From: a virus
Taxonomy: Duplodnaviria > Caudoviricetes
DNA length: 64,000 bases
IMG/VR virus record: IMGVR_UViG_3300005739_000025
Strand: one strand, 5' to 3'
Shown here piece after piece: positions 22,284 to 51,523 of the stretch. The stretch's first letter is position 1; the number at the start of each line of letters is the position of its first letter. Under the pieces are notes generated by a model, which did not search any database, was not told the origin of the DNA, and was given only the letters and a program-made list of their open reading frames with translations. The position numbers and the translations under genes were made by a program.

Positions 22284-22558
22284 TCAAGCTTTCAAATATT
22301 AATGAGGTAGCAGATAAGCTAAAAGAACTTAAAGAGGCTGTTGCTGTTTGCCAGAAAATAGAAGATCAAGTTTCGTGGGCTTGTGACTTTACAACTTATA
22401 GAACTATATCTGATGCCTTAGAGCCTATTTATGAGGCTGTAGATAGTGCAAAAGATTCAATTAATCAAGAAATAAATTATATTGAAGATCGTTTAGAAGA
22501 TTACAAGTGCAAACTTGATATTTTTGAACACGAAAATAAGATAGAAGTAAACGATTGA
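22280..22558 (+). CDS. Hypothetical coiled-coil protein
   Basis: ORF coupled to both neighbours. Confidence 0.5.
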   Translation: MIKLSNINEVADKLKELKEAVAVCQKIEDQVSWACDFTTYRTISDALEPIYEAVDSAKDSINQEINYIEDRLEDYKCKLDIFEHENKIEVND

Positions 22559-23634
22559 GTATATGTCTTAACATGATTGTTAAGGATGAATCTAAAAACA
22601 TCCTTAGATGTTTAGATTCAGTCTCACCCTATATAAACTATTGGGTAATTTGCGATACAGGTTCAAGCGATAATACAGTTGAAACTATTAAGAACTACTT
22701 TAACCAGAAAAATATTCCAGGAGAGATTCATGGTCATGGTTGGGTAAATTTTGGAGTTAATAGAAATTTAGCTTTAGAGTTAGCAAAAGATAAAGCGGAT
22801 TATATATTGCTTTGTGATGCTGATATGGAAATGGTAGTTAATCAACCAGATTTCTTTTCTAATATTAATAGCTATGGTTTTGATGAAGCTACTATTATTC
22901 AGGAATCTGATCATTTATCATATCACAACATAAGAATTGTAAGCGGTAAGAAAGATTTCAATTATGTTGGTCCTACTCATGAGTATATAACCGCTAAATT
23001 CAAAGATGTAAACAGATTAGATATAGATAAATCTGTACTATATTTCAAGGATCATGCTTCAGGATTTAATAGAACAAACAAATTTCAAAGAGACATAGAG
23101 TTGTTGGAAAACGAGCTGCTAAAGTTTCCATCCAATCAAAGATATAGATTTTACCTGGCCCAAAGCTACAGAGATAACAACGATAAAGATAACGCCATTG
23201 CCAATTACAAAAAGGTTCTTTATTGTAATGGCTATGTTCAAGAGAAGTACATATCTTGTTTAAATTTAGGTAGATTATATAAAGATAAAGGAGAAAAAGA
23301 ATTAGCAGTCTTTTACTACTTAAAATCTATAGAGTTTGATAGTTCTAGAATAGAGTGTATGGTAGAGGCTACAACTATTCTTAGAGAATTAAATCAACAT
23401 AATTTGGTTTGTTTGCTCTATGATAGATATAAAAATTACTCTAAAAATATACAGCACGCATTATTTCTAGAGCCAAAACTATATAATAACGAGCTTGAAT
23501 TTAATTTTTCAATTTCAGCCTTTTATGTTAATAGAAAGGAAGAAGGTTTACAAGCTATTAAAAAAATACTTGAATCTCCAGATAGTTCAGATCATATTAG
23601 ATTTTTAAGTGAAAAAAACTTGAAATTTTTTTAA
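22555..23634 (+). CDS. Glycosyltransferase family 2 with TPR-like C-terminal region
   Basis: ICLNMIVKDE...CLDS...CDTGSSDNT, LLCDAD (DxD), THE, RYRFYLAQSY. Confidence 0.85.
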   Translation: MSICLNMIVKDESKNILRCLDSVSPYINYWVICDTGSSDNTVETIKNYFNQKNIPGEIHGHGWVNFGVNRNLALELAKDKADYILLCDADMEMVVNQPDFFSNINSYGFDEATIIQESDHLSYHNIRIVSGKKDFNYVGPTHEYITAKFKDVNRLDIDKSVLYFKDHASGFNRTNKFQRDIELLENELLKFPSNQRYRFYLAQSYRDNNDKDNAIANYKKVLYCNGYVQEKYISCLNLGRLYKDKGEKELAVFYYLKSIEFDSSRIECMVEATTILRELNQHNLVCLLYDRYKNYSKNIQHALFLEPKLYNNELEFNFSISAFYVNRKEEGLQAIKKILESPDSSDHIRFLSEKNLKFF

Positions 23635-23691
23635 AATTTTAGTTGAGGTTCCTTAGAAAGACTATATATTAATAGAAGTTCTTTGACATTT

Positions 23692-24070
23692 AAGGGGGTA
23701 GCAGATAGCCGGTTGAGTCGTGCACTGCTTTAAACTGATCTTGACTCGATCAAGCCTTCTTAACAACGGTAAGGTATGGTGTTTAACGTCCCTAACAAAA
23801 TGTATCACCTTATAAATGGTATGCGAACTCTACCACTCTTAAGATCTAAAGAGTCTTCACAGTAAGATAAGCCGCAACAGGCTAAAAAATAGAGCGTGTC
23901 GGTTCTAGGTAAGTACCAAGCCGAAGACTATAGATGGTCAAAAACCTATGTAAAATACGGTTAGGTGTTCTTCGAGTGAGTGTATAAAAATATGCTAGGC
24001 ATTACTCACTCGATACCAGATAAGGCGCAACTTAATCTGGTCCGAAGTGCGATAAAAACACCCAATTTTC
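23692..24070 (+). ncRNA. Candidate large structured non-coding RNA, family unassigned
   Basis: No ORF; several helices visible (tcgagtgagt/actcactcga, ccagataag/cttaatctgg, actctt/aagagt, gagtc/gactc, agcc/ggct); boxA-like gttctttgacat immediately upstream. Confidence 0.55.
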
Positions 24071-24469
24071 CATGCATAGATTAGCTTATTCAATTCTAGC
24101 GTTTTTATTTGGATTCTGGTTATGTGAATTCATAATTAGTTTATTCTTGAAGAAAGATAAAATTCCTTTAGAATAAGAATATGAAAGTAAAACCAGCTTA
24201 CATGTCATTAATGATTTCCTTTGCACTATTTGCTATTTTAGTCTATCTTGTTAGTAGACTTTAATATGACTCAGGAAGAAAAAATATATCAACTTCGCGC
24301 TCTTCTCTCTTACATTAATATGAGAGTAGGGGAGTTTTATAGTATGGGACTCTACAATAACAACCCGACTAGAAAAGAACTATTCTTTATTCTTAAAGAT
24401 ATAAAAAAAACATTAGAACAGACAAGTAATTAATTGCATTTTTATTAAAGTTCCTACATACTTTTAACA

Positions 24470-24715
24470 ATGAAAGAGCTAAACAAATTAAGGGAAGAAG
24501 TAGCTGATCAAGAATTACATAAATATGATTTTTATGGGTACGTAGAGGATTCCAGTAATTGGGTAAAAGATGGAGATGTGTGGTCCTGTAAGGTCTATCT
24601 TGAAAATGAAGATGAGTATGAAGAAGAGGGAACTACTATTCCTTATTCCTTTACAGTATTTTTCGAAGAAGGTACCACCGAGGTTGAGTCTGTAGAATCA
24701 GAGTGTTTAGCTTAA
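24470..24715 (+). CDS. Small acidic early-type protein
   Basis: AGTTCC-ta-CATACT 7 nt before ATG; E/D-rich. Confidence 0.55.
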   Translation: MKELNKLREEVADQELHKYDFYGYVEDSSNWVKDGDVWSCKVYLENEDEYEEEGTTIPYSFTVFFEEGTTEVESVESECLA

Positions 24716-25213
24716 TGGCAAAATATAAAAAAGATTTTCAAACTATAATCTACAAAGGTTATAAAATAGAACAAGTTATTAATCACAATCCTTATCTTTT
24801 CTATGGAGGATATGGTTATCCTGAGAATCACCCTAAGCGTAGATATATGAAACCTATATACGCTGTTCAATGGGCTGATAAGAAGGAAGGTTATTGTTAC
24901 GAAACATACTACTATACTTCTTTAGTTGCCGCAAAGAGAATGATAAATTTTACTGTTAATCGCAATAAGGTCCCTGCATAATATTAACAATGACGAAATA
25001 CGATATTAATTCCCAAGTGGAAGAGTACTTTGGTACATTTGCTGCTGAACCTGCTAATGAAGACATGGTCAGTCTTAGCAGCTATTCTATTGAAGAATAC
25101 GAAGAGTATATTTCAAAAGAATCCCAAGAAAATAGTGAAATTTAATTTAGTTGCTGTTCCTATAAGGTTCCTGTACAATATTTACATAATCAAGAAAGGA
25201 GGTGAAACAAATA

Positions 25214-25546
25214 ATGGAAAACGTTATCAAAGTCGAGCGTAAGAACGGTAAGATCGTTCGTCAGACCGAAGGTAAACGCCGTGGACGCCCTAGTGGTTCT
25301 GGCAACCCTTCGCTTAAGTTGACCTGCTTGGTCACGGGTAAGTCCCGTGCTACCAATCAGAAGTATCTCCAGGCTAAGGCTGATCGTTTGGGCGTTACTG
25401 TTGACGAAATCGTTAACAACTATGTCTCTAAGGACGGTCTCAAGCAGATGGATACTTTCAATCACGCTAACAAAGAGTTGCTACGTCGTATCAATGGTGG
25501 AACTCGCATTAGCTCTGAGAAGGTCGCTGTTGCTAAAGCTGCTTAA
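25214..25546 (+). CDS. Basic putative DNA-binding protein with AT-hook-like RRGRPS
   Basis: Strong SD AGGAGGT at 25197-25203; GGTTCC-tg-TACAAT upstream; start moved to ATG 25214. Confidence 0.6.
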   Translation: MENVIKVERKNGKIVRQTEGKRRGRPSGSGNPSLKLTCLVTGKSRATNQKYLQAKADRLGVTVDEIVNNYVSKDGLKQMDTFNHANKELLRRINGGTRISSEKVAVAKAA

Positions 25547-25738
25547 TCAATAGAGCGTCTCCAGTTCAATCCTGCAGACGCTTCTATCTTATGAAAAAAC
25601 AAATTCAAAAACAATTAAAGTTTGCTTCTAAACTCTTACAAGAAATTTCCCGGGAACATAAAAAGGGAAACTACTATAGGTTTGGTTATTTGGCATATGA
25701 TGTTCAATTAAAAGAGTACGAAAGACTTAAAGCATTAT

Positions 25739-25948
25739 ATGAAAAGCATCGCTAGTATTCTTTGTTTACTGATTACTGGTTGTGCTACCAATCCAGTAGG
25801 AGCGGGATTTCAAAAAGAGTTTCCTTATAAATTTAGACCATATCCTGAATCTCCAGACATTTATAATTTCTCTCTTAATAATATTATCGATTTAACTCCA
25901 TACATATGGTTCCCACAAAAAGATACGCCTATATTTTCACCATTTTAA
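25739..25948 (+). CDS. Putative small lipoprotein
   Basis: LLITGC lipobox. Confidence 0.45.
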   Translation: MKSIASILCLLITGCATNPVGAGFQKEFPYKFRPYPESPDIYNFSLNNIIDLTPYIWFPQKDTPIFSPF

Positions 25949-26045
25949 TATTAGTGGTTCTAGTATCGTGTTGCTCAATAAATAATTCAAATAACAACAT
26001 GGACAAAGAGGTCCGTAAGATGTTTGAATTTATTGAACGACCACT

Positions 26046-26402
26046 ATGCGAAAAGAAGCCTTCGTTAAAAGATTAGAAAGCGGAAGACTAGTTTTTAGTT
26101 TTTACCCTCCTTTAAAAGACCTAGGAGGTAATCATTATTTTGATAAGCTTATCGTTGATTTAAACGATAAAAAGGTATATAAAGAGCTAGGAAAAACCAA
26201 AGTAGGTTATTTTTCTGAAGCTAGAGTTATAGAAGACGATGGAAGCGTGGGTAGATCTCTACTTCAAATAACTCATAGTACCCCATTTTCCTTTCAAGAG
26301 TTTGTAGATTTTCTACCTAAAGTTAAAGGTGAATATAAAGTTGTAGAGCTTAAACCTAAGACCGAAGAACACTTCGGAGATATATTGAGAGGACTATCGT
26401 AA
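26046..26402 (+). CDS. Tagged protein (KPKTEEHFGDILRGLS)
   Basis: C-terminal motif. Confidence 0.75.
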   Translation: MRKEAFVKRLESGRLVFSFYPPLKDLGGNHYFDKLIVDLNDKKVYKELGKTKVGYFSEARVIEDDGSVGRSLLQITHSTPFSFQEFVDFLPKVKGEYKVVELKPKTEEHFGDILRGLS

Positions 26403-26803
26403 TGAAACTTAAAGGAAAAGCATATTTTGTAAAAAAATTCTCAAATAATATATTTGGAAGCGATGAAGCTGATAGAATTATAAAATCTTCCAAAAATGTT
26501 AAAGGTAAAAGAAATATAGCACTCTATAAAGTATCTCCCCCCATTAAAGGACATCAATATGTTGTAGTTAGTAGTGTTAAAATAGAGATACCTATGAACA
26601 AAAAAGAAAGTCATATTATTCAAGAGACAATGGTATTTTTTTCTAATCATAAAGGGGATGTGGAATTTGGTCAAGAGTTTAAAACCTTTTACGGCTTCTT
26701 ACCCCATGATAAAGTGTTAATGGATATCGGCTATGAGCTTGTAGAGTTTAAGCTTAAACCAGAAACAGAAAAATATTTTGGAGACATTTTAAGAGAACTA
26801 TGA
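26402..26803 (+). CDS. Tagged protein (KPETEKYFGDILREL)
   Basis: C-terminal motif; stop/start overlap. Confidence 0.75.
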   Translation: MKLKGKAYFVKKFSNNIFGSDEADRIIKSSKNVKGKRNIALYKVSPPIKGHQYVVVSSVKIEIPMNKKESHIIQETMVFFSNHKGDVEFGQEFKTFYGFLPHDKVLMDIGYELVEFKLKPETEKYFGDILREL

Positions 26804-27222
26804 GTAAAAAATTAGAAGATGGTTATTTTTTAGACGATGGAAGAACGGGTATTGTTTATAAACCTATAAAATTAGGAGATTATGATGTATTTTTTAGTAA
26901 CGGTCTATTTTTTACTTTAGTAAAAGATGAAATAGTTACAGGTTACAAGTTTTACTCGTTAATGCACATAACCGCAAAAAAACATGGATTAAGTATAAAG
27001 TCTGTTCCAAAATGGCCCAAAGAAACGTTAATGTGGGGTCATGACTTTTTAAATAAGTTTGATCAAAATTTACCATATTTGTGTATAGTTAAACCTTGGA
27101 CGGTTCCGAGAAAATATTTTGATACAGGAGCTGCTCAATACTATAGTTTATACAAAAAGCCTTCTAAATTAATGAAACCTAAAACAAGAAAACATTTCGG
27201 AGACATAATAGATAATTTATGA
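26800..27222 (+). CDS. Tagged protein (KPKTRKHFGDIIDNL)
   Basis: C-terminal motif; ATGA coupling. Confidence 0.75.
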   Translation: MSKKLEDGYFLDDGRTGIVYKPIKLGDYDVFFSNGLFFTLVKDEIVTGYKFYSLMHITAKKHGLSIKSVPKWPKETLMWGHDFLNKFDQNLPYLCIVKPWTVPRKYFDTGAAQYYSLYKKPSKLMKPKTRKHFGDIIDNL

Positions 27223-27318
27223 GTGATAAAGTAGAAGAGATTAAAGAAGCTATTTCTAAACTAACTATTGAAGAGGTAAATGAATTAGCCGAAAAGCTAA
27301 AAGATATACTTAAACTAG

Positions 27319-27780
27319 ATGAAGACATTTAAGACATTTATAACCGAGAATGTGATACAAATGAGTGCTACTAGAGCTACTAAAGAGTATCCTTTTGTTT
27401 CTGAGCTAGACGATCAAAGTATAAAAGAGCTTTTATTAATTAGAAAGCCTGAAGACATTAAATCGGTATCTCTTGAAGCTATGTGGATGGATGATAGTGT
27501 AGAGTGTTACGGTATTATATTAAATGGAGTAGTTATGGGATTGTGGTGGTACGGACCTCATATTAAGGGATATCTACAAAAATTTAACGATAAACTAGAC
27601 GCTAAGAACAGAGCATTTCTACAAAAAGAAGTATTTGAAATTTTAGAAAATGAAAAACAGAGAATATACGATGAAGCAGGAGATGAAAGATTAGATAGAA
27701 TAGAAAAAGAAATAGAAATGCTTGATAAAATGAAACCTAAAACAAAAGAGTATTTCTATGACATAATGAAAGAACTATGA
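27319..27780 (+). CDS. Tagged protein with CTS-like leader (MKTFKTFITE ... KPKTKEYFYDIMKEL)
   Basis: Carries both N-terminal leader and C-terminal motif. Confidence 0.78.
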   Translation: MKTFKTFITENVIQMSATRATKEYPFVSELDDQSIKELLLIRKPEDIKSVSLEAMWMDDSVECYGIILNGVVMGLWWYGPHIKGYLQKFNDKLDAKNRAFLQKEVFEILENEKQRIYDEAGDERLDRIEKEIEMLDKMKPKTKEYFYDIMKEL

Positions 27781-28223
27781 CAAGAGGTAAAGCTATTTTA
27801 ATTAAAGATCTTACCCCTAGAAGTAAGGAAGATTTTCAAAGAGTGGTAAAAAGTGTTCCTAGATTTGATTATCTTTTTAGTAAGTTTGAGGGTCTTAATA
27901 TAGATCATATGGAGCTTAAAGTGTATAAGCTTAACCCAAAGCTATTTGTTGATAATGTTATTAAAGATTGTGAATATGTATTAATAGCTACAATATTCAT
28001 ATCAAAACATAATGAAAACAGATACAAGTATGAGTATAAAGAATCATCTGTTTATAAGAGTAATAAAAATGGAAAGATTTTAAACACCGATGAAATTTAT
28101 ATGACCCATAGAAACACTGATCATGAAGATGTGTTAAATGATATGGGAAGAGAGTGGTATGATCTAATAAAGCTTAAGCCTAAAACATCAGAACACTTTG
28201 GAGATATATTAATGAATATATGA
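27777..28223 (+). CDS. Tagged protein (KPKTSEHFGDILMNI)
   Basis: C-terminal motif; ATGA coupling. Confidence 0.75.
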   Translation: MTRGKAILIKDLTPRSKEDFQRVVKSVPRFDYLFSKFEGLNIDHMELKVYKLNPKLFVDNVIKDCEYVLIATIFISKHNENRYKYEYKESSVYKSNKNGKILNTDEIYMTHRNTDHEDVLNDMGREWYDLIKLKPKTSEHFGDILMNI

Positions 28224-28651
28224 ACAAATACTTTCAAGCTTTAAATAGGGGTTGGGACGTAGATGAAGATTCAGGGTTTAAATTTAAACATATAAATCCT
28301 TATGAATATGACATGATATATTTTCCATATATTCAAGGTTTTTATAAAATTATAAAGAATAAAAAATTTAAAATGTCTTTCGAGCCTCCTTGGTTTATAG
28401 CGCCTGTTAAGCTTTCTGAATCTTTATTAAATGATGCTAAAAAATGGGAAAAAGCTCATTTAATTCTTCTTAGAGAAATTAACCCAGATACGTTATGGGA
28501 GGATCTTTATATGATAGCTGATAAGTCAAGCACCCCCAACCATTTAAAATCTCAAATACTATCTGCTTCTTTACGTCCTAACTTTATAAAAAGAATGAAG
28601 CCAGAGACTCAAAAACATTTTAAAGATATTTTTATAGGATTAGAAGATTAG
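28220..28651 (+). CDS. Tagged protein (KPETQKHFKDIFIGLED)
   Basis: C-terminal motif; ATGA coupling. Confidence 0.75.
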   Translation: MNKYFQALNRGWDVDEDSGFKFKHINPYEYDMIYFPYIQGFYKIIKNKKFKMSFEPPWFIAPVKLSESLLNDAKKWEKAHLILLREINPDTLWEDLYMIADKSSTPNHLKSQILSASLRPNFIKRMKPETQKHFKDIFIGLED

Positions 28652-36466: not shown

Positions 36467-36907
36467 TTATCTATCCAATACATCTACTATATCACCAAAG
36501 AGTTCTTTTGATTGTGGCTTTAAGGTTTCAGAGAAGTCTTCTTCCTCTTTATAGCCTATACCTGTATCGGTAAAGGCACCTTTAAGTAATTCTAGTAACG
36601 TCTTTTTACTAGATATATGAGCTATTCTCATTGTTTTTTTATGCCTATTATATGGAGCTTCATATGTCTTTATATGCTTATCTATATTAGCCCAATTACC
36701 AGGTCTATCTTCTGGTTTCATTGTTTTAAATATATTGACCCATTTAATAGGCATCTTCGTTACAGGAAACATCTTTATTAGCGGATCTTTACCTCTAAGA
36801 ACTGAATGATCATACTTTATAAACAGTATCCATAGTCTTTTAACTTTATTGGCTAATACTTCATCATATGTCTTTCCTATATTGGTTAGGTCTCTTTTAA
36901 AGTACAT
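36467..36907 (-). CDS. Tagged protein (KPQSKELFGDIVDVLDR)
   Basis: C-terminal motif; TAAATA 7 nt upstream. Confidence 0.72.
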   Translation of the reverse strand: MYFKRDLTNIGKTYDEVLANKVKRLWILFIKYDHSVLRGKDPLIKMFPVTKMPIKWVNIFKTMKPEDRPGNWANIDKHIKTYEAPYNRHKKTMRIAHISSKKTLLELLKGAFTDTGIGYKEEEDFSETLKPQSKELFGDIVDVLDR

Positions 36908-38405: not shown

Positions 38406-38468
38406 CGAAAAAATTTTTGCTCGATTTTTTTGTTACAAAACTAGCCATAAGGAACTTAGACCCGGGTA

Positions 38469-39125: not shown

Positions 39126-39161
39126 ATTATTATTTACTATTTGCGGCATAGAACCTTCGGT

Positions 39162-40754
39162 TTAAAAATATTCCTGTAATACTTCTTTAAAATAATTTTT
39201 ATCCGATTCACCCAAGGTATCAAATATATCACCAAAGTGTTTTTTAGTTTCCGGTTTTAATGGCAATTCATCAGGAATAAATTCATATACACCTGGTTGG
39301 GTTTGAAATTCTATATAACTTTTTTGTATCTTTCTTAATTGTTTTTCCGATCCAGTAAACATGCTGTTATTAAAATCCCCCTTCCATTGATTGTATACTC
39401 TAACACCTCTATACTGGTTTGACCAGGAAGAACTAATAGGAAACTGTAATGCCTCTTTATAAAGTTTTAATCTTTTTCCTCTTAAGTCACTAAGTGGCTG
39501 CAGCCAATATTTTACCTGCATTACAGAATCATCATCGTCATTATCAGTATATGTAAACGACATTACCCAAAGAGGCTCTTTTCTTTCCGTACCTTCTTTT
39601 AAAGAAGACAAAATATCGCTAAAGTGTTCTTTGGTTTTTGGCTTAAGGTCTAGCTCTTCTTTCATTCTAGTACCATATATATAATTCTTATAGTCTAAAA
39701 ATTCTTTGTTAACCTTATCCTTTGGACCTATAAACGCTATTACCGTGGAGTACTTTCCAATATAGTTTCCAAGTCGTACATCTATATCTTTATCATCTTC
39801 ATAGAGACCGTGTTTGTAATTAACTTTATGATTGACTAGATTTTCTACTATCTCTTTATCCTTATCATTTAACCCTTCTAGACGCATATGTTTATAATCA
39901 GCATAAGCTACCTCCGTACCTCTTGGTTTATAGATCTTAATCAAAAATATAAACTTTTCTTTTTGCTGTCTACTCTCCTGCAACGCCGTAAAGATATCAC
40001 CAAAATGTTTTTTAGTTTCTGGTTTAACAGGTAAATCTTCTTCTAAACTTTTAAATGTAATTTTATAAGTCTTTATTAAATCCTTAACATCTGATAAAGA
40101 ATTAATAATGAAAGCTAGCCTGTATCTCACCTTACCACTATTATAGTGCTGTAATTCATAAGCCTTCATACCTGGAGTTGTTTTATATTGTTTCATCATC
40201 TTAAGTAACTTTTTTTCATCATCTGTCATCTCACTTATTTTTTTATAACTGTAAAGAGCTCTTTCTTCTGAGTAATACGCTTTTGGGTTCTCCCTCAACA
40301 CTCTTAGAAAGAATATATATTTGTCTCTATTTTTAGATTCATCTAAATTTGTAAGTATATCTTCAAAAGCTTCTCGAGATTTAGGTCTCATAGTTTTTTT
40401 AGCATATTCATTTTTAAGTTTCTTTATTATTTCTTCTCTATGTACATCCCACCAACGGTAAGATGCTTTATATGATGATTCATAGTCGCCTAGGTATTTG
40501 CTTACCACTAGATCTTTAAAAGAATAACCCGGTGTGTCCATATACTCTACAATTTCAATTACAGCATACTGCTCTCTTAAACTCTTATACCAACCTTCTT
40601 GTGGATCTTTATTTTCTAGTCTTACAGTGTATATAATTTCTCTATTATCTTTATCTATTTTTATATCTTGTACTGTTATTTTTACTGGTAAATCACTATA
40701 GAATATATTCTGAAATGATTCGGCTATGCTGTATAAATCTCTTTTACGGTTCAT
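39162..40754 (-). CDS. Polyprotein with four tagged modules
   Basis: RPKSREAFEDILTNLDES, KPETKKHFGDIFTALQES, KPKTKEHFSDILSSLKEG, KPETKKHFGDIFDTLGES. Confidence 0.8.
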   Translation of the reverse strand: MNRKRDLYSIAESFQNIFYSDLPVKITVQDIKIDKDNREIIYTVRLENKDPQEGWYKSLREQYAVIEIVEYMDTPGYSFKDLVVSKYLGDYESSYKASYRWWDVHREEIIKKLKNEYAKKTMRPKSREAFEDILTNLDESKNRDKYIFFLRVLRENPKAYYSEERALYSYKKISEMTDDEKKLLKMMKQYKTTPGMKAYELQHYNSGKVRYRLAFIINSLSDVKDLIKTYKITFKSLEEDLPVKPETKKHFGDIFTALQESRQQKEKFIFLIKIYKPRGTEVAYADYKHMRLEGLNDKDKEIVENLVNHKVNYKHGLYEDDKDIDVRLGNYIGKYSTVIAFIGPKDKVNKEFLDYKNYIYGTRMKEELDLKPKTKEHFSDILSSLKEGTERKEPLWVMSFTYTDNDDDDSVMQVKYWLQPLSDLRGKRLKLYKEALQFPISSSWSNQYRGVRVYNQWKGDFNNSMFTGSEKQLRKIQKSYIEFQTQPGVYEFIPDELPLKPETKKHFGDIFDTLGESDKNYFKEVLQEYF

Positions 40755-40755
40755 A

Positions 40756-41949
40756 TTAACAATGATAATTTAAGTACCTTTGAGCAGCCTTAGCTGTATT
40801 ATTACCTTTATTCTTTTGTTTTGATTTAATTCCTCTAGCTTTAGAACAAGACATCTTACCTTTTACTTGTCGTTTTAGAATACCAGGTCTCACCGGATCG
40901 TGTATAGATTTTTCTGATAAACAACTATCCATTATATTATCAAATATATCACCAAAGTGTTTTTCTGTTTCTGGTTTAAAATCTAGCTCTGGTTCGAATT
41001 TTCCTCTACCTGACCCAAAAGTAAGTATATTATTATCTAAAACTATTCTTAAATTGTCCTTCCCACCAATAAATGCATAATGCTTTCTTAATACAGGGTA
41101 AAATTTAGCTCCTGTGTAATGAGATGTATATTCTCTCTCATTAAATGTACCTCTTATTTTATTATTGTCTACATAAAATGTCATATCATTTAAACGTTCT
41201 TTATCCCTTTCTGTTAAGTCCTTTAATGGTTTTATTTTATAGTAATGTTTAGAATCCTTTGAAGCTTCATTTATGTTCATGAATAGAATATAGGGTTCTT
41301 GACCTTCCGGTATTTTAATTTCATCCATTAAATCGTTTATTGCTTCAACACTTTCGTTTAAACCGACTATTATATCACCGAAATGCTTTTGAGTCTCCGG
41401 CTTCATTGACTTTTTAATTTCATATGCATTAAGGGTCTTATTGTTAACCTTATCTAAAAATTTACCCAACTCCATCAAATCATTATCATTACTACTATCA
41501 TACGGTTTACCATACATTTTTCTACTACGTTTTAACTCTCTTATACCAGATTTAATATCGGTACTAATATCCTGACTTTGAGCAGTTGTTAGGTGAGTTA
41601 GTCCAGAATGTATCATTTGACCATGGGTGCCCTTACCCTTCAATTCGGGTTCATAAAGATATATATCTGTTTCTACTTCGTCTTCATTCATTGCCCAATC
41701 ATATATTGTTCTTATAACTTTATATTTTTTCTTTGAAGTTCTATCTTCAACATCATAATCAAATACTGCTTCACCATCTTCATTATAATATTTTTGTAAT
41801 GTAGAAATATAAAATCTACCATTGTCAACACTCTCGTTAAGACCACCCATTACACCATCAAAGTGTTTTTTTGTTTTTGGTCTAGCAGCTAAAACTTTTT
41901 TATCTTGTAAATTTTCCAATAAATTGCTAATTGTTTTATAGAATCCCAC
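40756..41949 (-). CDS. Polyprotein with leader, three tags and a basic C-terminal module
   Basis: MGFYKTISNLLE leader; RPKTKKHFDGVMGGLNES, KPETQKHFGDIIVGLNES, KPETEKHFGDIFDNI...LSE. Confidence 0.8.
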   Translation of the reverse strand: MGFYKTISNLLENLQDKKVLAARPKTKKHFDGVMGGLNESVDNGRFYISTLQKYYNEDGEAVFDYDVEDRTSKKKYKVIRTIYDWAMNEDEVETDIYLYEPELKGKGTHGQMIHSGLTHLTTAQSQDISTDIKSGIRELKRSRKMYGKPYDSSNDNDLMELGKFLDKVNNKTLNAYEIKKSMKPETQKHFGDIIVGLNESVEAINDLMDEIKIPEGQEPYILFMNINEASKDSKHYYKIKPLKDLTERDKERLNDMTFYVDNNKIRGTFNEREYTSHYTGAKFYPVLRKHYAFIGGKDNLRIVLDNNILTFGSGRGKFEPELDFKPETEKHFGDIFDNIMDSCLSEKSIHDPVRPGILKRQVKGKMSCSKARGIKSKQKNKGNNTAKAAQRYLNYHC

Positions 41950-42003
41950 AATTTTATTTAAGATTTAAAGTATATTTTTAGCTACTATTCGTTATAATAA
42001 ATT

Positions 42004-42714
42004 GTGGGTAAATCTATAGTCTATTATGGTTATATAGGAAATGATATGTATGTTGAGCCAGAAAAAGTCTGGCCAACAGCTATAGGTAATTGTCTATTGT
42101 TGTCTAAACTACATTCTGATGGCACGGCCGGTGGGGTGACTAAATGCCCCGCTTTCAAAGAATTTTATAAAAATACATTTTTAATAACCTCACCCTTTGA
42201 TTATAAACTTAATATAACAGATAGGAAGTTTCAATGTTATGATTATGATCAAGATTTTTATGATAGATATATCATTACAAGAGATGTTTCTAATAGAGTA
42301 TTAAGCTTAAGAGCACCAGAAATTATATTTTTTAGTGAAGATAAAAACTTGGAACTGGAAATGTTGCCTCCTCTTTTAAGTCCTAATATGTTTTCTAATT
42401 GTTTGTACATAACAGGCAAATACAACATAGGAAAACATTTTCGTACACTAGAATTAGCTTTAGCTTTAAGAGAGGATAAAGAATTAGAGATTAATTCAGG
42501 AGACAGTCTATATTATGTTAGATTTAACACGGACAATGAAGTAGAGTTAAGAAGATTTTTATTCAATACAGAACTAATGCAAATTATAACTTATATAACA
42601 AATATAAGAACTTATACTAAAAAAATAAAACCGTTATGTGAGTACTATACTAAAGCTATGCAATTCGGTTATAGAAATAAAATTCTTAAAAATATACGTA
42701 AAAATTTATTTTAA
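42004..42714 (+). CDS. Conserved hypothetical phage protein
   Basis: 236-aa ORF with CPAFKE...TFLITSPFD motif. Confidence 0.55.
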   Translation: MGKSIVYYGYIGNDMYVEPEKVWPTAIGNCLLLSKLHSDGTAGGVTKCPAFKEFYKNTFLITSPFDYKLNITDRKFQCYDYDQDFYDRYIITRDVSNRVLSLRAPEIIFFSEDKNLELEMLPPLLSPNMFSNCLYITGKYNIGKHFRTLELALALREDKELEINSGDSLYYVRFNTDNEVELRRFLFNTELMQIITYITNIRTYTKKIKPLCEYYTKAMQFGYRNKILKNIRKNLF

Positions 42715-42745
42715 CGTGATTAACAGCAGAATAAATAATTATACA

Positions 42746-42949
42746 GTGAAAGTAAATGACTCGTCTTTCTATAAAGAGTTCTTAGCAATGAAAGAAGAGA
42801 TTTTAAAACACAAATGGTACGAGTCTGAAAGAGTAGGCTATGATATAGGATTTTCTAGAGCGTTAATTGACTGGACTATAAAATTTAAATCTACCTTTTT
42901 AAAACAAAGAAAGAAAAAAATTAAATCGTATATTTCATACCCAAATTAG
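42746..42949 (+). CDS. DUF4032-like small protein
   Basis: YKEFLAMKEEILKHKWYESERVGYDIGFSRALIDW; TAAATA upstream of GTG 42746. Confidence 0.65.
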   Translation: MKVNDSSFYKEFLAMKEEILKHKWYESERVGYDIGFSRALIDWTIKFKSTFLKQRKKKIKSYISYPN

Positions 42950-43292
42950 AGGGTTGAGTTTGAGGAGCTGTAGGAGCGACTCTACCTGTAGGGGCTGTTA
43001 ATTTAGCTAGTAACACTGTTATATTTTCTATAGCTTTCATCATATTGTTTAGTTTTTGATCTAATGAGTTTATCTGATTAGTGAGATTTTGTAAGTTCGG
43101 TGCACCACCTGTTGATGTGCTTTGAGTATTGCTCATAGCTGTGGGAGCGCTAAAACTATTAGCATTTGGTGTAGATGACGTAGGAACTGTAGGCTGAAAA
43201 CTGTTTGGATTCAAAGCCATAGGAGGAGTTGCCTCTTTAACTAAACTTTTAGTATAGTTTTCAAAAATATTATTGAAATCTTCTTTTTTCAT
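42921..43292 (-). CDS. Probable head-packaged low-complexity protein
   Basis: FNNIFENYTKSLVKE leader; P/S/T linker and short coiled coil. Confidence 0.55.
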   Translation of the reverse strand: MKKEDFNNIFENYTKSLVKEATPPMALNPNSFQPTVPTSSTPNANSFSAPTAMSNTQSTSTGGAPNLQNLTNQINSLDQKLNNMMKAIENITVLLAKLTAPTGRVAPTAPQTQPSNLGMKYTI

Positions 43293-43570
43293 TACCAGTT
43301 TTTACAAGAAAAATATTTTGCAGTTCCAGGCTTTGCTGATGAACATTTGTGACGCGCTCTAAAAGATTTGCGACGTTTTGGATTTGATTTTTTAATTCTT
43401 CTTTTTGGATCACCATAATGTACGCGTTTTAACTTACCACCAACTCGAGCACATCTCATATATTTTTTATCTGTTCTCGTTGATGATTGCTGACCGGTAA
43501 CTTTAGTACATCTGCTACCTTTTTTTGCTTCTTCTAAAATTTGATTAACTAAATTATCGAAATTAAGCAC
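43292..43570 (-). CDS. Basic Cys-containing virion-type protein
   Basis: NFDNLVNQILEE leader; HYGDP...RRKSFRARHKC...YFSCKNW, recalled as widespread in large phages. Confidence 0.65.
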   Translation of the reverse strand: MLNFDNLVNQILEEAKKGSRCTKVTGQQSSTRTDKKYMRCARVGGKLKRVHYGDPKRRIKKSNPKRRKSFRARHKCSSAKPGTAKYFSCKNW

Positions 43571-43789
43571 TTCTATATTCCCCTTCGATATCATGAGCTA
43601 TTTGCATTAACCTATCACCATCCCCTCTTCTTGCTTTCATAGAAGATATTCTAGTAGCTATAGCTGCAATTTCAGAAGCTAAATTGATCATTTTATTTTT
43701 ATGCTCTGGCGGTTCACCAATATCAGATTCATAAACTTTTGAATACGCCTCAGAAATATTATATAACTCATTCTTCTTCATAAATGTAT

Positions 43790-44743
43790 TTATAAAGAAC
43801 CTATAATGTCTCCGAAATGTTCTTTTGTTTTAGGCTTCATATTTTTAGTGCTCAGTATCTTTAATCTTTCTTTTTGTGACATTAAAGCAATTTTTAAAAC
43901 CTCAAATGCATCTTTATCAACATCTAATGTATTATTTGTCAAACCATCATACAACTCATACCCACCTATATATGTTAAAGATTTACCCCCTTGTTTATGT
44001 TTTTTTAATGGAATAAGATCCGTATCCCAACGTTTAGTTTTTTTATCTAATATTTTTCTCTTTAATTCTAATCCTAAAAACATAGGTGTTTTTTCATCTA
44101 CAGAATAAGAAAAGTGCTGTAATATTTCATAAAACTTTACACCTTTAGAAGTATTATACCTCACCGTTATTTCATCAATTATTTTGTTATATCTATAACC
44201 AGGATTCTTTGAATATATTCTATTAAAGTCTATAATTTCGGGCTCATTTGTTTGCCTTGACTCTGAAACCGCGCCTAATATATCACCAAAGTGTTTTTTA
44301 GTCTCCGGCTTCATACCCATTGCCTCAATACTCCTCTTTTTCATATCAAAATTACTAACTTGATCTAAAATTTCTTCAATTATTCTAAAACCTTTTTTAT
44401 TTTTAAAATATGGATGCTTATGAATAGCGTGAGCCGCTACTAAATTCATTGGCAGCTCTTTCATTAAATTACGATCTATTGAATGAAGGATCATACCTTC
44501 TTCGCTATTATATCTGCAGTGAAAAATTGCAGTAGATTGTAATATACCAGGCTTATCTTCCTTCAATTTTTCAAAAATCTGAAAAACATTAAACCTTTCT
44601 TTTGTAATAGTATCTTCAAACCTAAAAAAATCGTTTATAAAATGATTAGAAATATCTCTTCTAAATTCTATAAGCTCTACATTTACAGGCTCTGATTTGC
44701 CTCTACTATACGCCTCAAATATTAACTTAGATGTAATATCCAC
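43790..44743 (-). CDS. Two-module tagged polyprotein with leader
   Basis: MDITSKLIFEAY leader; KPETKKHFGDILGAVSES and terminal KPKTKEHFGDIIGSL. Confidence 0.8.
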   Translation of the reverse strand: MDITSKLIFEAYSRGKSEPVNVELIEFRRDISNHFINDFFRFEDTITKERFNVFQIFEKLKEDKPGILQSTAIFHCRYNSEEGMILHSIDRNLMKELPMNLVAAHAIHKHPYFKNKKGFRIIEEILDQVSNFDMKKRSIEAMGMKPETKKHFGDILGAVSESRQTNEPEIIDFNRIYSKNPGYRYNKIIDEITVRYNTSKGVKFYEILQHFSYSVDEKTPMFLGLELKRKILDKKTKRWDTDLIPLKKHKQGGKSLTYIGGYELYDGLTNNTLDVDKDAFEVLKIALMSQKERLKILSTKNMKPKTKEHFGDIIGSL

Positions 44744-44755
44744 ACTTATATTTAA

Positions 44756-45298
44756 TTATAAAGAAGATAATATGTCACCAAAATGCTTTTGTGTTTCTGG
44801 CTTCATGTTTCTTAATCTTAAGTAGTTGTTTAGATTTTTTAACTCATCTTTAGAATAAACACCCTCGGTCACCGATAAATCTTCATAATCATTTAATACA
44901 TCTGCCATTACGTGCTTTATAAGATTTTTCATATCATCTAACATAGGTCCATGTTTATGTCTGCTTTTAGCATTATGAACAAGCTCTAATACAAAATAGT
45001 AAACATATCTAGGAAAATTTAATTTATCTGTTAAACCATACTTACTACGTAAATTTATTAAAATATTTTTTCTATGCATTCTAAACGGTCCAAGCTCAAA
45101 TAACCCTCTTACTAAAAACGGTAACAAAGGTATACCAACAATATTATTAAACATATCATAGAGTTTATTCTCTAGCCACGATTGTCCTCCTAATTCCCTC
45201 AATTGCCACAAAGTTTCAGTATTTTTCTTTATAGCAATATTAAAAAGAAAAGCAGCAACTTTATCAGCGTATTCGTTCTCGCTCGGTGTTAATGTCAT
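44756..45298 (-). CDS. Tagged protein (KPETQKHFGDILSSL)
   Basis: C-terminal motif. Confidence 0.75.
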   Translation of the reverse strand: MTLTPSENEYADKVAAFLFNIAIKKNTETLWQLRELGGQSWLENKLYDMFNNIVGIPLLPFLVRGLFELGPFRMHRKNILINLRSKYGLTDKLNFPRYVYYFVLELVHNAKSRHKHGPMLDDMKNLIKHVMADVLNDYEDLSVTEGVYSKDELKNLNNYLRLRNMKPETQKHFGDILSSL

Positions 45299-46389
45299 AA
45301 CTCTCTTAAAATATCTCCAAAATGTTCTTTTGTTTTCTTTTTCATTCTAGTATCTGAAAAATAATTAGAATCCATAAGGTTTAATAGCAATGCATTTTTT
45401 AAAAACACCTCTGCTATCTTGTAGTTAGTATCATAGGAGTGAGGAAAATAACAATAATATATGTACGATGTATTAACGTGGGATTTTCTATCTTGCATTA
45501 ATATTTCTAAATATTTTTTAGCATTTGGACCAGCGTTATATGATGTTACACCTGTATCCAATAAACCATTTACCTCATTTACATCTATTTCTGGATTATT
45601 ATACACACAATCATATAAAACATGTTTTTCTATGTAAGGTTGTAAAAACTTAGTGAGTATAAAATCATCCGGATCTTCACTTACATATATATTTTCTTTT
45701 ATTACCAAATATGGCATTATATTAAGTTTTACTAGTGAATATAGTTCGTGCTGATTTCTAATTTTAGAGAGCGCAGTGCCTCTATATTTGTAACCTGTTA
45801 AATCATTGGCTAAATTAGCTACTATTTCGCAAATTCTTTTTTCAAAGTCTACCAACTTTAAACTTTTTATCTTACCTGCAGATGTATGTTGATAGCTTTC
45901 TAAAATGCTTTTATATTGTTCATTAAACCCCAAACCTTTTATGATATCACCAAAATGTTTTTTTGTCTCAGGTTTAAACGCTAGTCCTTCTTTTTTATAC
46001 GCCAGCAACCAATTTGCTTTTTTTTCTACCTCCGACATGTAGGTTCCTTGTCTATAAAAATCAGGTACTTTCTTTTGCATTTTATCAAAGTCTTTATCAT
46101 CTCTATCTGTAAAAACATAACCTTTAAAAAGAGTGCTATCTGCTTTTAATGCAACAATAATTTGAGAATGGTTTGCAAAATCTAACTTAGTTCTTTTTCT
46201 ACTATTTTTTGTATTGACAAATACAAATGCAAATCTTTCAAAATTATTATTCTCTAAATAATTTATAATCTTTTGTAGGTTATCTTTGTTATAGTTTATA
46301 AAAAGATTGCTATTAATTCCTGGAAACGCTTTTCTTACTATATTTCCATTATAAATCTTACCAACCTTTAATTGATTAAAAACTTTCAT
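45295..46389 (-). CDS. Two-module tagged polyprotein
   Basis: KPETKKHFGDIIKGLGFNE...ILES and terminal KKKTKEHFGDILREL. Confidence 0.8.
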   Translation of the reverse strand: MKVFNQLKVGKIYNGNIVRKAFPGINSNLFINYNKDNLQKIINYLENNNFERFAFVFVNTKNSRKRTKLDFANHSQIIVALKADSTLFKGYVFTDRDDKDFDKMQKKVPDFYRQGTYMSEVEKKANWLLAYKKEGLAFKPETKKHFGDIIKGLGFNEQYKSILESYQHTSAGKIKSLKLVDFEKRICEIVANLANDLTGYKYRGTALSKIRNQHELYSLVKLNIMPYLVIKENIYVSEDPDDFILTKFLQPYIEKHVLYDCVYNNPEIDVNEVNGLLDTGVTSYNAGPNAKKYLEILMQDRKSHVNTSYIYYCYFPHSYDTNYKIAEVFLKNALLLNLMDSNYFSDTRMKKKTKEHFGDILREL

Positions 46390-46988: not shown

Positions 46989-47000
46989 CTAAATTATTTA

Positions 47001-48412: not shown

Positions 48413-48413
48413 A

Positions 48414-50009
48414 TTATTTTGTTGCGCAGCCTCCACCTGCAATAATTTTTTTAATTCTTGGAAGAACTTCTTCTAAGAATTCTTTTTTGACCGCTGGATC
48501 AAACTCTTCATAAACTACAAAGTCTAACATGAATGTTAGAAGATCTCTAGGCATATCTTTATTTAAAGTCTCAAACATAACACAAACTGCTTCTGGAGAT
48601 AAATTGTTCATTATTTTAGCTAAACCTATCATTACCTCTCTATCATCAGGTGATATTTTATCCCCAGCCCCTTTAGCATTTTGTGATGCAATTCTAAGTT
48701 TGTTTGCTACAAACACAATTAAAGCTAACATTTTATCTAAGGGTTGATCTTTAAGATACTTTTTAGGATCTTTTAAAATCTTACCCATATCAAAAGATTG
48801 AATGTGTTTTAAGAAAGTATCAAATCTATTTGCCCACGGTACACCAGCGCGCTGAGCAGCAAATAATCTAATGTTTTCCATCGCGTTAAATGATCTACCA
48901 GATGCTTTTTGTTCATCATACTTCTTTCTGAAATATTCTATACCCTTAGAAATCTTTTCTAACACTCTAGGAGTCACAAATGGATTTTCGCCGTTCGGTT
49001 CTTTGTATAGGGCGTCTTCAGGTACAGCTTTTGTGAACGCTACAATAGCATCATCTATACCGGCATTAACAGCATAGTCTCTCCATTCATCTGGATTTAC
49101 TACAAGAACACCAGCTCCAAAGCGGTTAATGTTAGCAGGAGAAATTGGCTCGTTTCCAAAAAGTTCACCCATGTTACATGCAGCTACTATTCCGACGTCT
49201 TTGGCAATTCTCCTGTCACCCAAAACTCTATCAAGTACAATTTTAAACGCAGCGTCTTTTACTTCTTTAGATCCTTGATTGAATTCATCCAAAAATAAAA
49301 ATCCATCTGCACCTTCTCTTGTTAAAAGATAAGCCCATGAAGGTGGACTATAAACTGTGTAAGGTTTATCAGATTTTACAGGTACACCCACGACGTCTGA
49401 TCTATCCATTTCTGCTAATCTTAAATCCACATAAACAAAATAGGAAGTGGGATCTTGAATAAGAGCATCTCTTTCTTCATCACTTAGATCAAAAAATTCT
49501 ACATATTCTTTGTTCTTTTCATTAGCAATTCTTTTTGATACTTGTTTAAAAATACTACTCTTACCCACACCTGGATCACCAATTAATAGGAAAGACTCTT
49601 TCATATCATAAGCAGCTTCTGCTTGTTCTTCTACTTGTCTTATAGACATTTCTGGAAATTCTGTCTCTTTCCAGCTTATAAGATCTGAATCACCGAATCT
49701 AGGAATATCTACTATTGATGTTGGATCTTGTTTTATTTGAGAAGCAACCTGCGCTTCTTTGTTAGCAGCTGAAATTAATGGCTGCGCTTGTTTTACAATA
49801 TCATCGGAGCTTATTTCAGGTTCTTGAGCTTGTTGAGCTATTTCACCAGCCTGACCTTTTAGTTGGGAAGCTTTTTGCTGAACACTTTTAGGGTTAACTT
49901 GTTTACCCTTAACCATTTGCATTGGTTTTGAAAAAGGAACCTCACCACCTACCGCTTCATTTAAAACTTTTTTGTATAGATTGAATATATTCTTGGAATT
50001 AGAGTCCAT
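48414..50009 (-). CDS. MoxR-like AAA+ ATPase with N-terminal leader
   Basis: GDPGVGKS, VDLRLAEMDRSDVVG, LFLDEFN, AACN, NRF, TPR; leader MDSNSKNIFNLYKKVLNE. Confidence 0.8.
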   Translation of the reverse strand: MDSNSKNIFNLYKKVLNEAVGGEVPFSKPMQMVKGKQVNPKSVQQKASQLKGQAGEIAQQAQEPEISSDDIVKQAQPLISAANKEAQVASQIKQDPTSIVDIPRFGDSDLISWKETEFPEMSIRQVEEQAEAAYDMKESFLLIGDPGVGKSSIFKQVSKRIANEKNKEYVEFFDLSDEERDALIQDPTSYFVYVDLRLAEMDRSDVVGVPVKSDKPYTVYSPPSWAYLLTREGADGFLFLDEFNQGSKEVKDAAFKIVLDRVLGDRRIAKDVGIVAACNMGELFGNEPISPANINRFGAGVLVVNPDEWRDYAVNAGIDDAIVAFTKAVPEDALYKEPNGENPFVTPRVLEKISKGIEYFRKKYDEQKASGRSFNAMENIRLFAAQRAGVPWANRFDTFLKHIQSFDMGKILKDPKKYLKDQPLDKMLALIVFVANKLRIASQNAKGAGDKISPDDREVMIGLAKIMNNLSPEAVCVMFETLNKDMPRDLLTFMLDFVVYEEFDPAVKKEFLEEVLPRIKKIIAGGGCATK

Positions 50010-50017
50010 AAAGTTAT

Positions 50018-51523
50018 TTATGAGTGAGATACGTCAATAAAATAGGTAGGACCGAATTTTTTAAGAATCTCGTCTGTACCATCCATTGTGATAAAAAATA
50101 ATTTTTTAGGGGCTTGGGGTAGAATAGGATTATCCTCTACATATCCGTCAGTAAAAACTAATAAACCGCCTTTAATTGGTTTACCTTGATAATACTTGTC
50201 TAAAAATTGTTTTACGCTTGAAAGAGTTGTTCCACCCCCATGAGCTTTCATATTCATTAAACCTTCAGTTATCTTTGACATACTCATTTTAGATGTATCT
50301 ATTTCAAAATGATCAGCAACAGTAGCGTCCCAAAGTAATACTAAAATCTTTACCTTATTATTTCTAAAAACTTTTAAAATATCTATAATTCCGCCTAAAA
50401 AAGTTTTTAATACAGGGTCTGTTATAGACCCACTAGTGTCGATAGCTACTACAGCTTGCAATTCATTTTTAACAGTATACCTTCTTGGGTGAAAGTAAGT
50501 TCCACCACCCAATCTTCTACTCTCTCTTGACCAATCTGTTTTAACTACAGACGAACCAACTATAAAATTCTTTAACAATTGTTTCCAATTAACTTTGGCA
50601 CTTAGTAGTCTTTTATCAAAAGATCTAGGCATACCCGGGTCAGTGCCTCTTCTTTTTGCTTCATCTTGCGCTTGTTGTGCTGCCTCTTGAACTTTACTCT
50701 TTAGTGCGTTATCTCTTTGCTGATCCGACATACCAGATGTATCGTTTTTTTGGTAAACCGGATCATTAGAAGGTACTTTTTCACCCTTTATTTGTTCAGC
50801 CTCTTGAGGTGTTAAATGTTTGTCCAGCTCACCCATCTGGTCTATTACTTGTTGAATACACTGTTTGACCTGTTCAGGGGGACCACTTTTAATTAATATA
50901 TCATATAATTGTTCTGCGTCCATGTCAGTTATATCGACCTTTTTCATTTGAATTCCGGTAACATTTAAAGAAGGAGATTTGCCTTTAGTGTTTATTTTTG
51001 CTTTTGATGCATCTGGTATCTCAATTATCCATCTACCATTTTTATTTTGAGGTATAAGACCCATCTTAGGTAAGGAAATACCCATATCTACTAAATCTCT
51101 ATTCATTATGTAATCGGTAGCATAATTCCAAATCGTCATATCTCTTCCTCTTTGTCTTGTGAACGTCAAAGTTGCTATATGCATTACTTCGTGAGCTAAA
51201 ACACCCATTACTTCATCATCAGATAACTCGTTTAAAACGAAATTTGCGTTAATATAAATGTTTGCAGAGTTATCCACAGCCATAGTGTTAATCCCGTAAC
51301 GAGCTGCTTCTTCTGGTTTTATAACAACAGTTTTAAGCTTTTGAAGAGTTAAACCAAAAAAAGGATAAACTTTATATAATCTAAACTTGGCTCTTACAAG
51401 TTTATCTTCAAAAGTCTTAAATACCTTAGGGTCCATAGGAGCTTGATCTGTTGGACCTGCTTGTTCTAGTAGTATTCTTCTATAAGATTTAAATATAGAA
51501 TCTCCATCAAAGTTATAGCGCAT
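50018..51523 (-). CDS. VWA-like domain protein with N-terminal putative metallopeptidase (DUF2201 type)
   Basis: TMAVD, LAHEVMH, WNYATDYIMN, AIDTSGS (MIDAS), GGGT, VFTDG; start set at MRYNFDGDSIFKSY. Confidence 0.8.
   Translation of the reverse strand: MRYNFDGDSIFKSYRRILLEQAGPTDQAPMDPKVFKTFEDKLVRAKFRLYKVYPFFGLTLQKLKTVVIKPEEAARYGINTMAVDNSANIYINANFVLNELSDDEVMGVLAHEVMHIATLTFTRQRGRDMTIWNYATDYIMNRDLVDMGISLPKMGLIPQNKNGRWIIEIPDASKAKINTKGKSPSLNVTGIQMKKVDITDMDAEQLYDILIKSGPPEQVKQCIQQVIDQMGELDKHLTPQEAEQIKGEKVPSNDPVYQKNDTSGMSDQQRDNALKSKVQEAAQQAQDEAKRRGTDPGMPRSFDKRLLSAKVNWKQLLKNFIVGSSVVKTDWSRESRRLGGGTYFHPRRYTVKNELQAVVAIDTSGSITDPVLKTFLGGIIDILKVFRNNKVKILVLLWDATVADHFEIDTSKMSMSKITEGLMNMKAHGGGTTLSSVKQFLDKYYQGKPIKGGLLVFTDGYVEDNPILPQAPKKLFFITMDGTDEILKKFGPTYFIDVSHS

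Follow-up and report, generated by a model that had tools for sequence, protein, structure and literature searches.

Phages load proteins into their heads and deliver them by injection, in many cases as a first strike against host defence, and to our knowledge the sole well-understood address label for such head-packed proteins is the capsid-targeting sequence (CTS) of T4, which is N-terminal. The consensus of the T4 head protease is L/I-x-E. The prohead proteases of T4 and of giant phages cut C-terminal to Glu, removing CTS propeptides of 10-20 residues from internal proteins (PMC5694885; PMC3012670; PMC9958956), and in SPN3US the head-protease cuts remove N-terminal propeptides in all but one case (PMC10052503). 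Here we describe a 17-residue peptide, the tag, in a stretch of 64,000 nucleotides of an uncultured tailed phage (Caudoviricetes; IMG/VR record IMGVR_UViG_3300005739_000025), which is referred to as the window. The tag stands at the C-terminus of many proteins that mostly share no other similarity, and it also recurs inside four longer chains, where each internal copy is followed by a hydrophobic-x-Glu site of the kind that a head-maturation protease might cut.

Comparison with described systems

The nearest comparators are the T4 internal proteins IPI-III and Alt, whose N-terminal CTS is removed by gp21. Like the proteins of the window, these are diverse, fast-evolving late cargo with a common short peptide adjoining hydrophobic-x-Glu, and many proteins here also have CTS-like N-termini. 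In contrast to the CTS, however, the peptide here is C-terminal and would be retained, and there are up to four tags per chain in the window, and seven in a related 11.8-kb metagenome contig (L002), so that several mature units would arise from one chain. The present proteins are similar in sequence neither to the internal proteins of T4 nor to their CTS, and the leaders in particular show no sequence homology to the T4 CTS. The processing of phiKZ gp175 and SPN3US gp245 at A/S/G-x-E sites resembles the arrangement proposed here in that it takes place in a large phage with many head-internal or ejection proteins, with cuts after Glu and multiple sites per substrate, but in those phages the cuts remove long N-terminal propeptides (PMC10052503), and neither a C-terminal tag nor tandem cargo units have been described.

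The best functional analogy for the tag is provided by the targeting peptides of encapsulins, which dock inside an HK97-fold shell. In both cases a short conserved peptide lies at the extreme C-terminus of unrelated cargo, joined to it by a flexible linker, and all three features are found in the present proteins. The differences are that the tag belongs to a phage, has another motif and is known from sequence, whereas encapsulins have no known polyproteins or protease sites. The C-terminal coat-binding helix-turn-helix of the P22 scaffolding protein is alike in being a basic helical C-terminal element that suffices to bring fused cargo into the procapsid, though it belongs to one scaffold protein rather than being a tag of many genes, and no homology was found. 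Finally, the polyproteins of RNA viruses (for example, those with 3C-type cuts after Gln/Glu) have one open reading frame (ORF) with several folded units and short conserved protease sites between them, and one ORF with units predicted to fold independently and conserved candidate protease sites between is also what is found here. Unlike those, the present chains belong to a double-stranded DNA phage, they hold interchangeable accessory modules and not a replication or structural set, and the junction keeps the tag.

The tag and the site that follows it

The tag has the consensus L/M-K-P-E/K-T-x-K/E-H-F-G-D-I-x-x-x-L, and a hidden Markov model (HMM) of it, run over six frames, finds exactly 24 copies in the window at 10-38.6 bits, the best chance match scoring 3.5 bits. 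Fifteen of these stand at ORF ends, where they stop 0-2 residues past the final hydrophobic position, and nine are internal and confined to four minus-strand ORFs, with four in 39162-40754, three in 40756-41949 and one each in 43790-44743 and 45295-46389 (Table 1; ORFs are referred to below by their lower coordinate). The cargo proteins that carry the tag are mostly without mutual similarity and belong to no Pfam family. Mean nucleotide identity across the tag copies is 0.63, with a longest common run of 27 nt, and synonymous codons vary freely; it is therefore the peptide that is conserved and not a DNA repeat, and this variation rules out a DNA repeat or shufflon as the origin of the tag. 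Internal translation starts behind the tags were considered and dropped, a Met being present after one junction only, as were 2A-like skipping, inteins and multi-core precursors of ribosomally synthesized and post-translationally modified peptides, to which the motif and the folded modules of ~105-190 residues are unsuited.

A hydrophobic-x-Glu site, which with Leu or Ile in first place is the site motif of T4-type cargo, follows all nine internal tags in the window. A preliminary description of this DNA, made from its letters alone, had reported nine internal tags each followed by an L/V/F/I-x-E site and 15 terminal ones, and the tag HMM and the listing of sites agree with it in every checkable detail. 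In seven of the nine the Glu lies exactly two residues past the final hydrophobic residue of the tag (LDE↓S, LQE↓S, LKE↓G, LGE↓S, LNE↓S twice, and VSE↓S, where the arrow marks the candidate cut), and the other two have it shifted (to FNE↓Q in one and to LSE↓K in the other). The binomial probability of this register, taking Glu at a frequency of 0.075, is ~4e-7, a value to be read in the light of paralogues that are related by descent and are not fully independent.

The same pattern is seen across the clade. A tag profile of 30 columns, consisting of the tag and 13 uninformative upstream residues with the downstream residues deliberately excluded, identified 64 proteins at E <= 1e-3 among 1.84 billion representative proteins, all of which seem to be members of the same phage clade and none of which has a Pfam family. 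Together with the window and fetched loci these provide 66 distinct internal and 76 terminal tags, counts that overstate independence, as the clade proteins share ancestry. Hydrophobic-x-Glu is present at all 66 internal tags, in exact register in 49 (L/I/V at tag position 17, any residue at 18, Glu at 19) and nearby in the remaining 17, against a background in the tagged proteins of 0.025 per position; the Glu is thus conserved in homologues, as the idea of processing in the preliminary description had required. The residue after the Glu in the 49 in-register sites is Ser in 28, the rest having N, G, K, A, Q, E, T, R or Y, and is small or polar in almost every case; at matching junctions across related genomes the middle residue is D, N, Q, S, G or K, with the Glu and the hydrophobic residue constant. 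In all 76 cases the terminal tags of the clade stop no further than -3 to +4 residues from position 17, 40 of them exactly at 17, and every tag with more than four residues behind it has a Glu site, even ahead of tails of 8-16 residues.

One lineage has the internal Glu three to four positions earlier (HFGDI-V/M-E or HFGDIFSE). The early Glu occurs together with early-stopping terminal tags (HFGDIV, HFGDLID, HFGDILG) in P0009, P0023, P0034 and P0037, and with no terminal tag in P0021 and P0035. This co-variation of the early internal Glu with short terminal tags is suggestive, the proteins concerned being few and related.

Modules, chains and leaders

When the chains are cut at the tags and all modules are compared, modules that one genome encodes as separate tagged proteins turn up in another as internal units of a polyprotein. 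Related genomes differ in how many modules they have and in the order of these, and the fusions and fissions that separate them fall exactly at the tags, which answers the comparison of module number that the preliminary description had proposed. The 236-residue protein of 47001-47711 has 59% identity to the first unit of a 458-residue protein of L002, the second unit of which matches unit 2 of 45295-46389 in the window. Likewise, the protein of 44756-45298, which stands alone in the window, matches unit 2 of another L002 chain, and unit 2 of 43790-44743 is found as a stand-alone protein in L002 and as P0052. Chains in the relatives carry 2 to 7 tags; the longer ones include L002 1547-3790 (minus strand; 747 residues, 7 tags) and P0013 (750 residues) and P0009 (624 residues), with 5 tags each. 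The annotated ATG of 47001-47711 (minus strand) is probably too far upstream, as its homologues P0032 and P0019 begin at an equivalent internal Met (MDFYEQVRTIIEG), and a revised start near 47678 would give a leader ending I-I-E↓G.

A domain of ~120 residues had been said to recur in ORFs 39162 and 40756, and an iterated HMM confirms this, finding 13 copies of a domain of ~105-120 residues at E-values of 1e-18 to 1e-29, located in units 2-4 of 39162, in unit 3 of 40756 and, in nine further copies, in relatives. In this repeated-module family only (alignment A2; for example, window 39981-40337), an acidic pair (LEE, KEE, PDE or EPE) lies 4-6 residues upstream of the tag and is a possible second cut site, not a general one, at which the tag would be cut out. 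The idea that the tag is excised as a propeptide was dropped, the upstream acidic EE being restricted to this family. The first tag of ORF 40756 directly adjoins a leader of 22 residues with zero payload between them, much as originally noticed, and the C-terminal tail that follows its last tag (SIHDPVRPG…; 40756-40926, minus strand) is basic, Cys-containing and untagged. The relative P0036 keeps this tail, which is there preceded by LNE↓R. The neighbouring ORF of 100 residues at 43292-43594 (minus strand; phrog_7595, function unknown) likewise has a basic and Cys-containing C-terminal half.

Leader-like N-termini are seen by inspection in most multi-tag chains and in about one third of the single-tag proteins, and a strict leader pattern is matched by 12% of N-termini versus 1.5% of internal windows. 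Unit 2 of 43790-44743 is preceded by tag-SES/RQTNEPEIIDF, and its stand-alone homologues begin MNFKTFIEE/AKKSDKEPVITDF, such that a T4 CTS-like leader ending in hydrophobic-x-Glu and a tag with its Glu site are placed at about equal distance from the first conserved module residues. The fusion in 45295, on the other hand, keeps the downstream leader, and its junction (Table 1) corresponds to MGFNEQYKVILES, the stand-alone start of P0047. Both arrangements agree with a model that places ahead of every module a removable element with the same type of site at its end.

Leaders that resemble the T4 CTS, in three types (MKTFKxFxxE, MNFDxxVxxLLE and DSKLIFExY), are also seen on many untagged ORFs, namely 11883(-), 37848(-), 39149(-), 43292(-), 43594(-), 43781(-), 47925(-) and 53207-54232(-), and further at 57730(+), 58713(+), 59402(+) and 60070(+). 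Given these ORFs, the set of packaged cargo may be much larger than the tagged set.

Predicted structures

Structures were predicted with AlphaFold2, both alignments being shallow. The repeated module (13 sequences) is modelled as a compact alpha/beta domain (pLDDT 81, pTM 0.72), from which the last 19 residues, comprising the tag, project as a short free helix at pLDDT 52-60. The two-unit protein 43790 (10 sequences) is modelled as two beta-rich domains (pLDDT 71, pTM 0.43), with the lowest confidence in the loop 91-105, in residues 155-164, which include the end of the tag and SES, and in the terminal tag; the leader is also of low confidence. Prediction module by module, which had been proposed as a check, thus returns folded modules with low-confidence tags and junctions, and the latter two are predicted to be exposed and flexible. 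A flexible, exposed junction of this kind would be needed by a protease site and by a docking peptide alike and proves neither. Searches with the repeated-module fold gave no assignable fold in Foldseek against the PDB (best E 0.01), in a wide search of VIA (best Z 4.4) or in BFVD (best E 0.011), and the look-alikes of the 553-residue cargo protein (Table 1) in the ESM Atlas were weak leads of the leucine-rich-repeat type only.

Proposed processing and its alternatives

In the mechanism that we propose, late genes would encode cargo in which every folded module bears a flexible C-terminal tail with the 17-residue tag, the modules being encoded singly or joined head to tail, usually behind a T4 CTS-like N-terminal leader. 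The head-maturation protease would cut after the hydrophobic-x-Glu behind each internal tag, and the same protease would probably also cut the similar site that closes the N-terminal leaders. Cutting would yield one-module units ending in the tag plus two residues, close to where the singly encoded proteins end naturally. The tag would act as a docking peptide common to the cargo and directed at one single partner, its likeliest role being prohead loading, with a role after ejection as the alternative. We infer the cleavage, the enzyme, the location in the head and the partner of the tag from the sequence, and we put the chances that a head protease cuts the chains after each internal tag at about even. 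Cutting by a head protease is favoured because the sites match the rule, Leu occupying P3 and Glu P1, with a small residue after the Glu.

The preliminary description had made two claims. It had the chains processed in the head by a gp21-type protease into tagged units, for which the site pattern, the module shuffling and the models all speak, the assignment to a gp21-type enzyme inside the head keeping its conditional standing. It had also held that the action of the tag must come after maturation, at a free C-terminus; no result supports this, and about half of the tagged proteins have no obvious leader. A role of the tag in cargo loading is at least as likely as a post-maturation role, because many tagged proteins have no obvious leader and because flexible C-terminal tails of unrelated cargo are where the tag is found, and the tag itself may be a packaging signal acting before cleavage. 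By analogy, we further put forward as a tentative possibility that in this phage the tag corresponds to the cargo-loading peptide of encapsulins. It would then be a portable C-terminal address that docks at least 17 unrelated proteins per genome on the prohead shell or scaffold of a T4-like phage, with tandem chains serving to co-package modules in fixed ratios until the head protease separates them, and it would constitute a second packaging route independent of the N-terminal CTS, as well as a natural, modular means of exchanging injected effectors.

Several points weigh against the proposed processing. Known prohead proteases nearly always take off N-terminal propeptides, and the release of multiple units is unprecedented there (PMC10052503). 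Most terminal tags stop at Leu and not at Leu-x-Glu, such that the product of a cut would be similar and not identical to them, and about half of the tagged proteins are without an obvious N-terminal leader. The matches listed for a T4 gp21 query were close T4 relatives only and included nothing on the 244,006-bp and 237,194-bp contigs that carry the polyprotein and its nearest relatives. The likeness to T4 rests on weak homology and promoter motifs, and a floppy junction would suit any linker, cut or uncut.

The same sequences could be accommodated with no cleavage at all if the tag were a short linear motif for a hub partner, the chains were multivalent beads on a string, and the Glu mimicked a free carboxylate or capped a helix. 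The terminal copies do stop at or next to Leu, many of their short extensions containing D or E (LDK, LED, LE, LEK, LENI), and the tag is modelled as a flexible short helix, as a docking motif would be. Charge mimicry requires fixed spacing, however, and the shifted variants place the Glu 4 to 7 residues past the Leu (LNFNES, IMDSCLSE), while one subgroup has it three to four positions earlier (HFGDI-V/M-E or DIFSE). Chains that stay uncut would in addition leave unexplained both the preference for Ser after the Glu and the equivalent leader site ahead of stand-alone modules, and we regard them as doubtful, if still worth bearing in mind.

Cutting by some other enzyme, with the tag as its docking site, seems unlikely to us, be it the HExxH/VWA protein with the MoxR ATPase (Table 1), another phage protease or a host protease. 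MoxR/VWA pairs remodel client proteins, and the ATPase and the VWA protein, the latter with HEVMH and DTSGS-MIDAS motifs, lie mid-array in both the window and L002, each with TAAATA just upstream and with a leader-like N-terminus (…NIFNLYKKVLNEA and …DSIFKSYRRILLEQA, respectively). The AAA_5 ATPase family is, however, found in 605 phage records versus 64 protein clusters for the tag, so that the ATPase is not tied to the tag, and across genomes the pair does not co-occur with the tag, the adjacency being confined to this small clade. Moreover, Glu at P1 with Leu at P3 is the known specificity of T4-type head proteases, and none such has been described for DUF2201. It is very improbable that the tag is a tail unrelated to the head which binds a hub of replication or transcription, for instance the sliding clamp of the phage: T4 gp43, gp33 and gp55 have extreme C-terminal clamp-binding tails, and the tag is likewise at the extreme C-terminus with a basic stretch and then an acidic-hydrophobic core (G-D-I-L), but the internal copies with their conserved Glu would go unexplained, and the CTS-like leaders, the late-promoter context and a hub common to at least 17 function-unknown proteins would all be unaccounted for.

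If the cutting of tagged chains by a head protease holds true, a retained C-terminal label on many unrelated proteins would represent a new sorting logic for phage cargo, notably in combination with chains that carry both label and cut site, and head-protein processing would gain a new variant in which one chain releases several mature units that bear the tag. Cargo sets would evolve by fusion and fission at the label, and the tagged proteins would form a large pool of candidates for injected effectors whose folds are unknown. The tag might also be of use as a C-terminal label for loading foreign proteins into capsids.

Distribution of the tag and phage context

On the sequence evidence the tag is rare and clade-restricted. 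A degenerate DNA pattern of the tag matched three metagenome contigs, of which L002 is syntenic with window 37465-51700. Among 50,697 public phage genome records there was no DNA match to the window and no protein match for a tagged ORF, and in IMG/VR nothing was matched with the ATPase search or with the degenerate tag pattern, the single match of an ATPase alignment there (31% identical) being on an unrelated 70-kb contig. Pfam and PHROGs searches of the tagged ORFs and their neighbors identified nothing besides the ATPase and the VWA/peptidase protein, and a weak precomputed T4_Y16D match on P0021 was not reproduced on re-search. The tag profile had no match among PDB sequences, and a literature search for the letters of the tag found no paper containing them.

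The polyprotein is on record on a 244,006-bp contig, and its nearest relatives are on a 237,194-bp ENA contig. Sequencing runs containing small shares of the window are from aquaculture, freshwater and lagoon metagenomes, with no RNA run among them. A DUF6267 protein of the window is ~26% identical to proteins of T4-like cyanophages and pelagiphages, and a PhoH gene and a QueE-like radical-SAM gene are also present. We read the source as a large, distantly T4-like, uncultured aquatic phage.

The hexamer TAAATA is found no more than 30 nt upstream of 24 of the 74 gene starts, versus 1.5 expected, usually 4-8 nt before the start codon. It precedes the heads of the tag operons at 20588, 36907, 41949, 44743 and 46988, and similar motifs are found ahead of 43781, 50009 and 51523 as well as 44743, 46988, 36907 and 20588. 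The motif resembles the T4 late promoter, TATAAATA. The longer ATAAATA is not enriched window-wide (38 found versus 47.8 expected). The upstream TAAATA motifs suggest late promoters of the T4 type with almost leaderless mRNAs.

Table 1. Tagged ORFs, tags with their candidate sites, and associated features of the window (aa, amino acids; arrows mark candidate cuts)
Feature	Coordinates	Strand	Remarks
Polyprotein, 530 aa	39162..40754	-	Leader resembling CTS (MNRKRDLYSIAES...), then four units of module and tag; LGE↓S followed by 13-aa tail
Internal tag 1 of ORF 39162 + LDE↓S	40338..40394	-	
Internal tag 2 of ORF 39162 + LQE↓S	39975..40031	-	
Internal tag 3 of ORF 39162 + LKE↓G	39594..39650	-	
Internal tag 4 of ORF 39162 + LGE↓S, then 13 residues	39207..39263	-	
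Polyprotein, 397 aa	40756..41949	-	Leader MGFYKTISNLLEN, tag 1 without payload, two module+tag units, ~51-aa tail after LSE↓K
Internal tag 1 of ORF 40756 + LNE↓S	41833..41889	-	
Internal tag 2 of ORF 40756 + LNE↓S	41353..41409	-	
Internal tag 3 of ORF 40756 + shifted LSE↓K	40912..40983	-	Glu seven residues past tag
TAAATA late-promoter-like motif	41955..41960	-	Just upstream of ORF 40756
Two-unit protein, 317 aa	43790..44743	-	Leader MDITSKLIFEAY, internal tag then VSE↓S, terminal tag
Internal tag of ORF 43790 + VSE↓S	44261..44317	-	
Terminal tag of ORF 43790	43793..43843	-	Stops at last Leu
Single-unit tagged protein, 180 aa	44756..45298	-	Module fused behind other unit in L002 (6510-7598)
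Two-unit protein, 364 aa	45295..46389	-	Junction GL-GFNEQYKSILES; downstream module retains own leader
Internal tag of ORF 45295 + shifted FNE↓Q	45919..45981	-	Second site ILE↓S seven residues on
Single-unit tagged protein, 200 aa	46386..46988	-	ATAAATA 6 nt upstream of start
Single-unit tagged protein, 236 aa	47001..47711	-	59%-identical L002 homologue fused via internal tag + LNFNES
MoxR-type AAA+ ATPase (AAA_5, phrog_1297)	48414..50009	-	Inside tag array; leader-like N-terminus
Putative metallopeptidase, HExxH (HEVMH) + VWA (DTSGS MIDAS motif)	50018..51523	-	Pfam DUF2201_N/DUF2201
Largest cargo, 553 aa	51551..53212	+	Leader MHSFKDFIKLYEA, terminal tag
146-aa protein	36467..36907	-	Most divergent terminal tag (10 bits)
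Second array, eight single-unit tag-ending ORFs	20588..28651	+	20588, 21166, 26046, 26402, 26800, 27319, 27777, 28220

Elsewhere in the window are genes for a tail-fibre-like protein with a Peptidase_S74 chaperone domain (6723-7859, minus strand), a UDP-galactopyranose mutase (12503-13519, plus strand) and a member of the IMPDH/GMP-reductase family (5685-6731, plus strand).

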